Position numbers and translations under genes: made by a program. DNA of 64,000 nt from Octopus vulgaris (taxonomy: Eukaryota): contig OX597821.1 in the NCBI GenBank assembly GCA_951406725.2, positions 113,150,001-113,214,000 on the forward strand, written 5' to 3'. Positions 45,701 to 48,700 of the stretch are shown one piece after another. Below the pieces are notes generated by a model, which was not told where the DNA came from, ran no database searches, and saw only the letters and a list, made by a program, of their open reading frames with translations. Numbering within the stretch: position 1 is the first letter of the stretch; every line of letters starts with the position of its first letter.

Positions 45701-48700
45701 TGGTGGTGCTATAAAAAGTATGTGATTGTTTTGTTATCTCTGTTACCTTATTGGTAGGAAGAGTGCAGCCGGAAAACATAATTCTTTCAAGTTTTACCAT
45801 TTGTTAATTCTTACTATCAATCCATATTTTTTCCTGTAAAAATCTTGATTATTAATAAACACTTGTGCATAAATACATGTACAACACAATTACACACATG
45901 CATATATTTATATTTACGTACATAGAGCTATACACACATTTATCTATCTATCTGTCTATCTCTCTAACTATATATATATATACATATATATATATATATA
46001 TATATATATATATATGTAGGTCCCGGGTTGATTCGGGGTTAACCACAGTAAATAAGGTACTCAATACATAGCAGAGTAAAATTAATTTATTATATAGAAG
46101 GAGCTTCTACAGGACTAGAACTGTTTCATTCAAGAGAAATCTTCAGGAGCTTCCTGAAGATTTCTCTTGAATGAAACAGTTCTAGTCCTGTAGAAGCTCC
46201 TTCTATATAATAAATATATATATATATATATATATTAAAGGAAATAGAGAAATATAATTGACATATTATAAATTTATTAAAATTATAATATAATACTATA
46301 AAAAGATATAATATAATATAACAAATAATTAAAACAAATATATATATATATCCTACAATTTTATGATTTAGCAGTCCTTGCATGAAATTTTTGTCTACTT
46401 TTTAGATAAATATTACCCTGATTAGATCCATATACATAAGTCTGAATTTTTTATAAGTTCACTTGTGGATAGGAATCAAAACAAATTGTCAGATATATTT
46501 TTGTTTTAATTATTTGTTATATTATTTTATATTATATCTTTTTATAGAATAATTATATTATAATGTTTATAATTTTTTAATACGTTGAGTGTATTTCTCT
46601 ATTTCCTTTAATGTTTATATATTGAAAGTATAGCATTCTATGTTTAGATTTTTTTCTTTACTAAATTATGGCATTTAACTGAAGAACCAGTTAAAATTGG
46701 ATGCTTTCCATCCTTTTGAAGGAAATTGTTTTTTCCTTGGATTGAATAACAGCATTGCCCCAGTGGCACCTGTGCCGGTGACACGTAAAAGGCATCATTT
46801 GATCGTGGTCGATGCCAGTGCCACCAGACTGGCTCCTGTGCCAGTGACACATAAAAACCACCATACGAACATGGTCAATGCCTGAGCCACGTGACTGGCT
46901 CCCATGCTAGCAGCACGTAAAAAGCACCATTCATGCATGGTTAATGCCTGTGCCACCACTGGCACGTAAAAAAACACCCACTAGACTCTCGAAGTGGTTG
47001 GCGTTACAAAGGGCATTCAACTGTAGAAACATTGTCAGATCAGATTGGAGCCTGGTGCAGCCTCTTGGCTTGCCAGTCCTCAATCAAACCATCCAACTCA
47101 TGCTAGCAAGAAAAGTGGATGTTAAACGATGACAATATGATGATATATATATATAAATATATAAAATCTATGAGTCAGAAAAACACTGGCATTGATATAC
47201 TAGTTAGTATATTATTTTCAATTATAAAATACAATATTATAGTCTTAAATAACAAAATTTCTGATGATTGCCAGTGTTGGTTCTCAACCTTTTTGTATGA
47301 AACTAACCAGTAATTTGGCTATTATGAGACTATAACATATTTTATTATTAATAGTGATGAACATTCCTGTTGTAGACGACAGGCAAGAGTTCTGCGAGTT
47401 CTTGCAGAACAACCTTCATAGATGCTATGTTTAGAGTGTTCAAATGTTTATGCTGTACTTCAGCTCGTTTGTTCTATCAAATCAACTTACCTGTAAAGGT
47501 GCACAGGGTGCTATGTGTCAGGTATGAGATGAAGTGTTTTACTCAAGAACACAACACACCTGGTCTGGGAATTGAAACCATAATCTTTATACACATAGAC
47601 ATGCACACAATATATATATATATATATATTTAACATTATGCTGTCCTTTTTCAGGAAAACGAACCCATTATCTCAATGAAACAAGGTAAAAAAAGTATGC
47701 GTCGGAAACTGGTTTCTCTCACCCTGAAACGAAAATCGAAACTCACTGAAGAAGTTACTCGAAAAATGGAAATCAATGAAAAGTCTGCTGGTTTTGAAAG
47801 TGGAGGAGCAGGGAATGCTCTGTTAGATGATCGGCCAACATCCAATCTAGAGAAATTACATTTTATCATTGGTAACGGCATCTTACGACCTGAATTGCGG
47901 TCAGTACACTCATTCTTTTATTTATAGTCTTGTTGTTATTGTGACATCCTTTTTTCTTTTATGTTCTTGTAGTGGAAGCATGATTGCTCTTGAACTTTAG
48001 CTGCCCACATTGAGGCATTTTACTTTTAACTACCCATTTTGGTTCACCATTTGATGGTTGAATCCATTTAGTTTTGCTTGGACCATTCACCCCTTTAATG
48101 TAATGGACTAGTCTAGCATCTGTTCATCAGTTATAAAATTGGAAGTTTTGGCCCACTAAGTCCCTAGGGAGGAGAGTTTTATTTCAAGCAGCCAGGGACC
48201 TCGATGTGAGAACAGTTTGATTTCACTTTACATTTTTCAGCTTGAACAGAATTCAAACCAGAATCATTGACATTATGCTTCATGTATTACCAATATTGGA
48301 ATAGAATTGTAGCCAGAATTGTATTTCAGGCTTTTCTAACCTTTCTCTCTTTAGTTTTATCAGCATTCAAAACTATACAAAGTACTGACAATTGTTTATG
48401 TCCTAACAGTTTGCTGTATCAAATTTTAGCAATAGTAACAAATATTTCTTTGCAGTCAATTGCAACTGGTGTTTGAATTTGCTTATTATTACCCAGTCTG
48501 AAATCATTTAACAGAGGACATAATATATCAGACCCTAAAACTGCAATTCCGACAACCATGCTCATACATTATAGCTAAATTCTGGTTTTAAATCTTCCAA
48601 GCTCAACATTTTGGAGTTGCATTTGTTGTCCAACAAGTCACTTGATTTGAGATTGTTTAAACTAAAGTAAAGTTGAGGCTGAAATAGTTACATCAGGGAA

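Follow-up and report, generated by a model that had tools for sequence, protein, structure and literature searches.

Why does an intron of the octopus myosin VIIa gene hold a hammerhead ribozyme motif with an intact core, directly downstream of a perfect antisense arm? In a 64-kb window of Octopus vulgaris DNA (the whole stretch that was analysed, and to which all positions refer), a sequence-only reading had described this arrangement as a self-inhibited ribozyme which could be released by A-to-I editing or by a helicase. We consider it very likely that the palindrome is a young non-coding stump of a Penelope-like (PLE) retrotransposon, probably of the Hydra type, in which two 5'-truncated hammerhead-bearing 3' ends meet head to head within a (TA)n tract, and that the predicted blocking of the ribozyme would be a by-product of this layout.

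The palindrome is part of an asymmetric insert in a myosin VIIa intron

The host gene is Octopus myosin VIIa, on the plus strand, one exon being 97% identical to myosin VIIa of O. bimaculoides; the placement of the motif in the sense orientation within a MYO7A intron, made from the sequence alone, was therefore correct. The exons bounding this intron are 45461-45562 and 47655-47900. We observed that the two arms of the palindrome, 46085-46148 and 46152-46215, are exact reverse complements of each other (64/64 positions) with a 3-nt loop between them, so that the perfect palindrome with identical arms reported before is confirmed. With its 131 bases (46085-46215), it is the sole perfect non-microsatellite palindrome with arms of at least 18 nt in the 64-kb window.

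The palindrome is a portion of a 199-base insert, 46017-46215, which is flanked by two (TA)n tracts and contains no ORF. The limit previously set at 46085 has to be moved outwards, since the insert extends 66 nt past the palindrome on the left, to about 46017-46019. Indeed, the left copy, read on the minus strand, continues for these 66 nt before it meets (TA)n near 46017, and the right copy runs into (TA)n at 46215. This unequal entry into (TA)n (46017 vs 46215) shows that the insert combines two copies of a single element end, which differ in length and meet at their 5' sides. The features of the locus are the following.

45563-47654, plus strand: host intron of Octopus myosin VIIa, which holds the palindrome (GT at 45563, AG at 47653-47654)
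45969-46016, no strand: left (TA)n target tract
46017-46084, minus strand: element 3' tail of about 66 nt, possessed by the left copy alone and running into (TA)n; the very high summed contig depth over 46017-46085 marks it as family sequence
46085-46148, minus strand: left arm, a 5'-truncated element copy and predicted antisense blocker in the plus transcript; it retains its core and stem III, and the junction interrupts its helix I
46145-46153, plus strand: junction and 5' strand of helix I, with the 3-nt loop at 46149-46151; the contigs of relatives start matching at 46148
46145-46201, plus strand: type I hammerhead motif, with core 46154-46160, stem II 46162-46171 on U46161·U46172, GAAA 46173-46176, stem III 46176-46191 with a self-complementary loop, and a predicted cut after 46192
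46152-46215, plus strand: right arm, a sense copy that ends at the family's short 3' end and runs into (TA)n; at the mirror position, 46085, contigs repeatedly end into (TA)n
46214-46235, no strand: right (TA)n target tract, in common with the edge of an older neighbouring insert

An intact hammerhead core with a weak predicted fold

On the plus strand every hammerhead core base is present: CUGAAGA (46154-46160), GAAA (46173-46176), a 4-bp stem III and UA, the predicted cut site being after A46192. When the core definition given in the available portion of PMC3088659 was used for comparison, we found C3-U4-G5-A6-N7-G8-A9, G12-A13-A14-A15.1 and U16.1-H17 in 46145-46201. In a descriptor scan for intact cores this motif was the top hit, with a score of 16 which was not reached in any of 100 shuffled windows; 4 hits in the window scored at least 12, compared with 0.06 per shuffled window (100 shuffles). 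The intact sense-strand core had thus been recognized rightly, and so had the loss of stem I at the junction in the minus-strand copy, which keeps its core and stem III and merely 2 contiguous helix-I pairs. Stem I of the plus-strand motif exists as described, with a length of 9 bp instead of 8 bp, and 46145-46148 have a double role in it, being also the last bases of the antisense arm. Because the contigs of relatives start matching at 46148, the family's own helix I is probably of 6-7 bp, and the outer pairs at 46145-46153 would come from the junction.

Stem II of the plus-strand motif consists of 3 bp on a U·U opposition (U46161·U46172), not on G10.1-C11.1, so that the base pair usually found at 10.1-11.1 (G-C) is missing. 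Natural hammerhead variants with U·U at this position have been reported, and it is the best-tolerated mismatch there. A search of Rfam gave no hammerhead match, either at the gathering score (1 match) or at E up to 10 (43 matches); the palindrome context may hide the hammerhead from the Rfam model. Matches of the hairpin to miRNA precursors in Rfam were set aside, as they are below the gathering score and reflect the hairpin alone.

When the motif is modelled in isolation, the 9-bp helix I and the 4-bp helix III form, the pair probability of stem II is 0.05-0.07, and the active fold is reached about 2% of the time because the core AAGA pairs with loop II. Two copies of the motif fold in the model as a double hammerhead at -39.4 kcal/mol, compared with 2 x -14.7 kcal/mol. 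As modelled, the motif folds poorly by itself and seems to depend on a dimer.

The insert belongs to a young and very abundant repeat family

We compared the contigs of four of 24 listed sequencing runs (X1, X2, X4 and X5) with 46017-46700 and observed that the insert 46017-46215 belongs to a very high-copy family. The summed contig depth over 46017-46200 in X1 is 0.27-1.46 million, and that of a locus-specific contig, which matches 46377-46700 with 0 differences, is 18.2. The ratio of family to locus depth is 33,000-80,000 uncorrected (X1, X2) and about 1,000-2,600 when every base is counted 31 times; these roughly 1,000 to 80,000 copy-equivalents, which depend on the overlap correction, are a depth ratio and not a copy number, and are best read as thousands or more. 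The family is equally abundant in organism B (X5), and 23 contigs of X4, perhaps an RNA run, contain its sequence but give no sign of strand, locus, editing or ends. Metagenome contigs gave 0 matches to the exact family pattern and 0 to a degenerate one, and no description of the family was found in the largely open-access literature searched.

Among the 1924 contigs of X1 that match the region, 976 are at least 99% alike, so that the family and the palindrome copy are young and the identical arms need no homogenisation. The structure had been called very young or recently homogenised; we retain the first term and reject the second as unnecessary, the neighbouring inverted insert having drifted to 90% arm identity.

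The boundaries of the family are recurrent. Matches start at 46148 in 22, 7, 13 and 3 contigs of X1, X2, X5 and X4, respectively, and X1 and X5 each have 12 contigs in which 46085, the mirror of 46215, is an end into (TA)n. The contigs also include inverted joints centred elsewhere (e.g. 46069>46148, 46073>46147, 46082>46167 and 46129>46168). The same centre as at the locus is crossed, with more than 31 letters on each side, by X1 record 2 and X2 record 9, with 7 and 8 differences; X1 and X2 are runs from different studies. Such palindromes exist in read data, and these two contigs probably come from other loci; no exact contig across the locus centre was present among the matches listed (32 pieces, against 3747 unlisted). 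Among the rows listed (40 of 80), two variants fall inside the motif, on N7 and in loop II, which are free positions.

In all four runs, the contig parts before 46148 present a partly consistent upstream sequence (agreement 0.69-0.82), which is possibly the body of a longer parent element. Behind 46080, an apparent sister subfamily with a different self-complementary 3' strand of helix I was observed in 7 contigs of X1.

The insert has the architecture of Penelope-like elements

What is taken below from PMC8557442, PMC3846280, PMC4209133, PMC3088659, PMC7229834 and a Xenopus retrozyme preprint (bioRxiv 10.64898/2026.07.22.740005) refers to the available portions of these sources. A typical PLE has an inverted 5'-truncated copy and a one-sided tail of 30-40 bp (PMC8557442), and head-to-head junction palindromes with an overlap of inverted and direct repeats have been reported in PLEs and read as self-priming (Arkhipova et al. 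2013, PMC3846280). At the octopus locus we found an inverted 5'-truncated copy joined head to head, the optional tail at one end (the 66-nt extension, on the left side alone), and a hammerhead near the element 3' end together with a (TA)n target. The endonuclease-bearing PLE insertions (PMC3846280; Craig et al. 2021, PMC8557442) likewise have head-to-head arms overlapping at the junction, a one-sided tail, a (TA)n target and a hammerhead near the 3' end. However, the octopus insert is of 199 nt without ORF, its tail is of 66 nt instead of 30-40 nt, and both its arms end at the edge of helix I. We conclude that the locus is a new octopus member of a known PLE insertion type.

Membership in PLEs rests on the architecture and on the motif. 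Concerning the clade, almost all Hydra families target (TA)n (PMC8557442). We counted the motifs listed in File S2 of PMC8557442: 14 of the 25 Hydra-clade families, and 0 of the 6 families outside this clade, have a U·U opposition at the foot of stem II (CUGANGA-U...U-GAA), and 3 of the 25 have the ACAG/CUGU-A stem III of the plus-strand motif; since this file has no Neptune, Poseidon and Nematis motifs, the Hydra clade call is soft. Hydra-clade hammerheads, including that of Hydra-1_Obim from Octopus bimaculoides, share with the octopus motif the type I topology, the U·U stem-II base (14 of the 25 families), stem III (3 of the 25) and the preference for (TA)n, and Penelope-13_HM has its motif on both strands through an inverted copy, as at the octopus palindrome (PMC8557442). 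In contrast to the Hydra-clade rows, where loop III is of 1-3 nt, loop III of the octopus motif has 8 nt with a central palindrome, and its stem II is of 3 bp. Identity with Hydra-1_Obim was rejected, the motif differing in all three helices (Files S1/S2 of PMC8557442), and identity of the 46017-46215 family with the octopus Naiads was not found. Five diagnostic short motifs of the family had no match in the available supplement of PMC8557442, where a line wrap could hide one, and no RT-GIY-YIG partner ORF was linked to 46017-46215 in the insert itself or in metagenome contigs. For O. vulgaris, 336 recently active Penelope-like insertions have been reported, in a paper whose main text does not mention ribozymes (PMC13282606).

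We also compared the locus with other hammerhead systems. The minimal PLE hammerheads (Cervera and de la Pena 2014, PMC4209133) are alike in their dimer-type palindromic helix III and low predicted monomer activity, the measured activity of dimer-type monomers being low or absent, whereas the octopus motif has no G10.1-C11.1 pair and its two copies abut directly; opposite-strand hammerhead pairs 100-700 bp apart were already known in Schistosoma (PMC4209133). Animal non-LTR retrozymes (PMC7229834; bioRxiv 10.64898/2026.07.22.740005) are also non-coding, PLE-derived, abundant and often intronic, with a type I hammerhead, but they are head-to-tail tandem repeats which release monomers, and the head-to-head octopus insert cannot do so. 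Assignment to them was rejected because the window has no further copy besides the inverted arm, which is not a head-to-tail unit. The intronic hammerheads of human RECK and C10orf118 (PMC3088659) are of type I and in sense as well; they are single-copy, conserved and shown to be active, whereas the octopus motif is a young repeat copy predicted to be occluded. Finally, a MITE or DNA-transposon hairpin would have fixed symmetric TIRs with a constant centre, and was rejected since the ends are asymmetric and the centres vary among relatives.

Possible origin of the two arms

In vitro, AT-rich DNA is cut on both strands by a PLE protein, which extends each of them; two RNA start sites define the tail, uncleaved RNA is the template, and the PLE hammerhead does not cut without the protein (PMC11167929). 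We infer that the octopus insert arose by the joining of two separately primed cDNAs. An autonomous PLE protein would cut the AT-rich target on both strands, and cDNA would be primed from two start points on the uncleaved element RNA, one giving the short end at 46215 and the other the long end 66 nt further (46017-46019). Both copies would stop at the outer edge of helix I, and 1-4 complementary nt around AGCT would link them. During transcription of the myosin VIIa pre-mRNA, pairing of the two arms would then give a 64-bp hairpin while the sense arm is being made, and the intron would be spliced out uncut.

The main alternative to two priming events is that fold-back self-priming of one template made the mirror arm, the right end being shortened later by (TA)n slippage. 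The 4-bp stem and 3-nt loop of the junction form a natural snap-back primer, and PMC3846280 interprets PLE junction palindromes in this manner. Nevertheless, the short end recurs in the 12 X1 and 12 X5 contigs with different flanks and looks like a start site of the family rather than like erosion, and the other joints have unrelated spacers or use 3-nt microhomologies; we hold self-priming to be possible, although on the unlikely side. It could also be supposed that the palindrome is an assembly or library fold-back artefact from a high-copy repeat, as its perfect arms lie between microsatellites and the exact centre-spanning contig is absent among the matches listed. Such an artefact is highly unlikely: the arms are asymmetric by the 66-nt family tail, the loop is not palindromic itself, two runs contain palindromes of the same centre with 7-8 differences, head-to-head pairs that have diverged (83-97% arm identity) exist elsewhere in the window, and the right flank 46377-46700 was matched with 0 differences.

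Predicted blocking of the ribozyme and fate of the hairpin

In the model, the ensemble energy of the palindrome is -108.9 kcal/mol, compared with -34.8 kcal/mol for the hammerhead fold, i.e. a gap of 74 kcal/mol, and about 5 nt of arm beyond helix I are already enough to abolish helix I. The suggestion that the antisense arm, which is transcribed first, would sequester the ribozyme is supported by these energies as a prediction. A dedicated releasable switch, which had been proposed in addition, finds no support, the antisense-first layout being the standard PLE product (PMC8557442, PMC3846280). In any head-to-head insert the antisense arm precedes the sense arm whichever strand is transcribed, so that the blocking is a consequence of geometry and gives no evidence of design.

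Octopus RNAs undergo extensive A-to-I editing. We barred all 21 As of the antisense arm from pairing and observed that a gap of 21.5 kcal/mol persists in the model, which speaks against the release by editing that had been imagined. As this gap persists and the five core As of the plus-strand motif are editing targets themselves, editing would more likely destroy the motif than free it; at 30% editing per A, all five core As would be spared 17% of the time. In Drosophila, siRNAs are produced from the inverted regions of inverted Penelope copies (PMC3681739). The fate of the octopus hairpin is likely A-to-I editing or small-RNA processing, and not release of an active ribozyme. A self-inhibited ribozyme that regulates myosin VIIa and is released by editing or a helicase would agree with the sense orientation, the intact core and the full occlusion predicted. 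We nonetheless judge it extremely improbable, given that the copy hardly differs from a young family of very high abundance, that the gap with the 21 antisense As unpaired is 21.5 kcal/mol and 30% editing spares the five core As 17% of the time, and that the isolated fold is weak.

Other hammerhead loci of the gene and a possible selective filter

This one 64-kb octopus gene has five hammerhead-bearing loci. Besides the palindrome, we found the following.

6234-6266, minus strand: solo core-intact hammerhead candidate, antisense to myosin VIIa, about 300 nt before the exon starting near residue 45
12357-12429, minus strand: solo core-intact hammerhead candidate, antisense to myosin VIIa, intronic, abutting (TA)n; stem III the same as in the 32-kb pair
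32419-33013, no strand: second hammerhead pair of head-to-head layout, from a family other than that of the palindrome and in a different intron of the gene; arms identical at 262/271 positions (96.7%), spacer of about 30 nt, plus-strand core intact (32928-32967), minus-strand core with one change (32485-32524)
46224-46622, plus strand: inverted insert next to the palindrome, older and from another repeat family; arms 46224-46345 and 46493-46622 with 110/122 aligned columns identical, decayed sense hammerhead at 46410-46498

The intron of the pair at 32419-33013 lies between the exons ending at 32088 and starting at 34214. In the older insert, the antisense arm does not cover the core of the decayed hammerhead 46410-46498, which has two core changes; relatives have the consensus G at 46423 in most of the depth (822/881 in X1) and the core-consensus letter at 46478 in about half (147/326 in X1 and 68/106 in X2). 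This decayed motif has an extra hairpin inside its stem II loop, and its family is of lower copy in the contigs. A weak solo sense candidate at 30139-30174 has a chance-level score.

With a tiny number of cases, the five loci are consistent with a selective filter, the tolerance claim of the sequence-only reading, in which PLE hammerheads cut the pre-mRNA and core-intact sense copies in introns survive mainly when an upstream antisense arm blocks them. This filter is compatible with the reading of the palindrome as a PLE stump, and we consider it a fair hypothesis, although a doubtful one. Both strong solo core-intact candidates (12357-12429 and 6234-6266) are antisense, but two out of two has P = 0.25 without any bias, and the AATAAA in the tail could alone cause an orientation bias. 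Both core-intact sense copies lie in palindromes that cover them and the single sense copy without such cover carries two changes in its core; however, any palindrome puts one copy in sense, two core changes are expected by neutral decay (P 0.30-0.51 at 10-15% divergence), and the solo sense candidate 30139-30174, weak and of chance-level score, exists. The variants on N7 and loop II, among the rows listed, suggest that the core is kept in the family. As regards published data, retrozymes are depleted in introns of Xenopus, where 42-44% of them are nevertheless still intronic, the available portion of the preprint making no mention of orientation (bioRxiv 10.64898/2026.07.22.740005), and single PLE motifs did not cleave, or needed a dimer or a protein, in PMC11167929 and PMC4209133. 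The wider picture would be that several PLE families have scattered thousands of hammerheads over octopus introns and that head-to-head integration acts as a safety catch, core-intact sense copies persisting mainly when silenced by their mirror arm; we find this equally doubtful.

As a single locus, the palindrome carries little weight: it is one young copy of a common insertion type, and its value is that of a pointer. Five hammerhead loci in one 64-kb gene, together with the abundance of the family, mean that octopus genomes give the numbers to test in vivo cleavage by PLE hammerheads through intronic orientation bias; no such test was found in the largely open-access literature searched. 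If the filter were real, it would provide population evidence at the genome scale for cleavage of host pre-mRNA by PLE hammerheads in living cells, and perfect hairpins would give cephalopods a large supply of substrates for editing and small-RNA pathways.

Additional observations in the window

Degenerate inverted repeats with about 83-87% arm identity are present in introns at 19171-19673, 60777-61046 and 56176-56249; the first two contain hammerhead-like remnants by eye, with no motif callable. At 46677-46720, a CUGAAGA box is followed by a short hairpin, the GAAA box being absent; this sequence is multi-copy in the contigs and is possibly another decayed motif. The intron 5' of exon 45461-45562 contains an interrupted (TA)n array of about 700 nt (44400-45120). 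An intronic tRNA-Ser(AGA)-like gene at 27906-27987, on the minus strand, shows three non-standard pairs in the Rfam alignment. Residues about 1613-1701 of protein P0003, the database model of myosin VIIa, match a common dispersed octopus repeat at many positions of the window, which suggests that the gene model took in repeat sequence.
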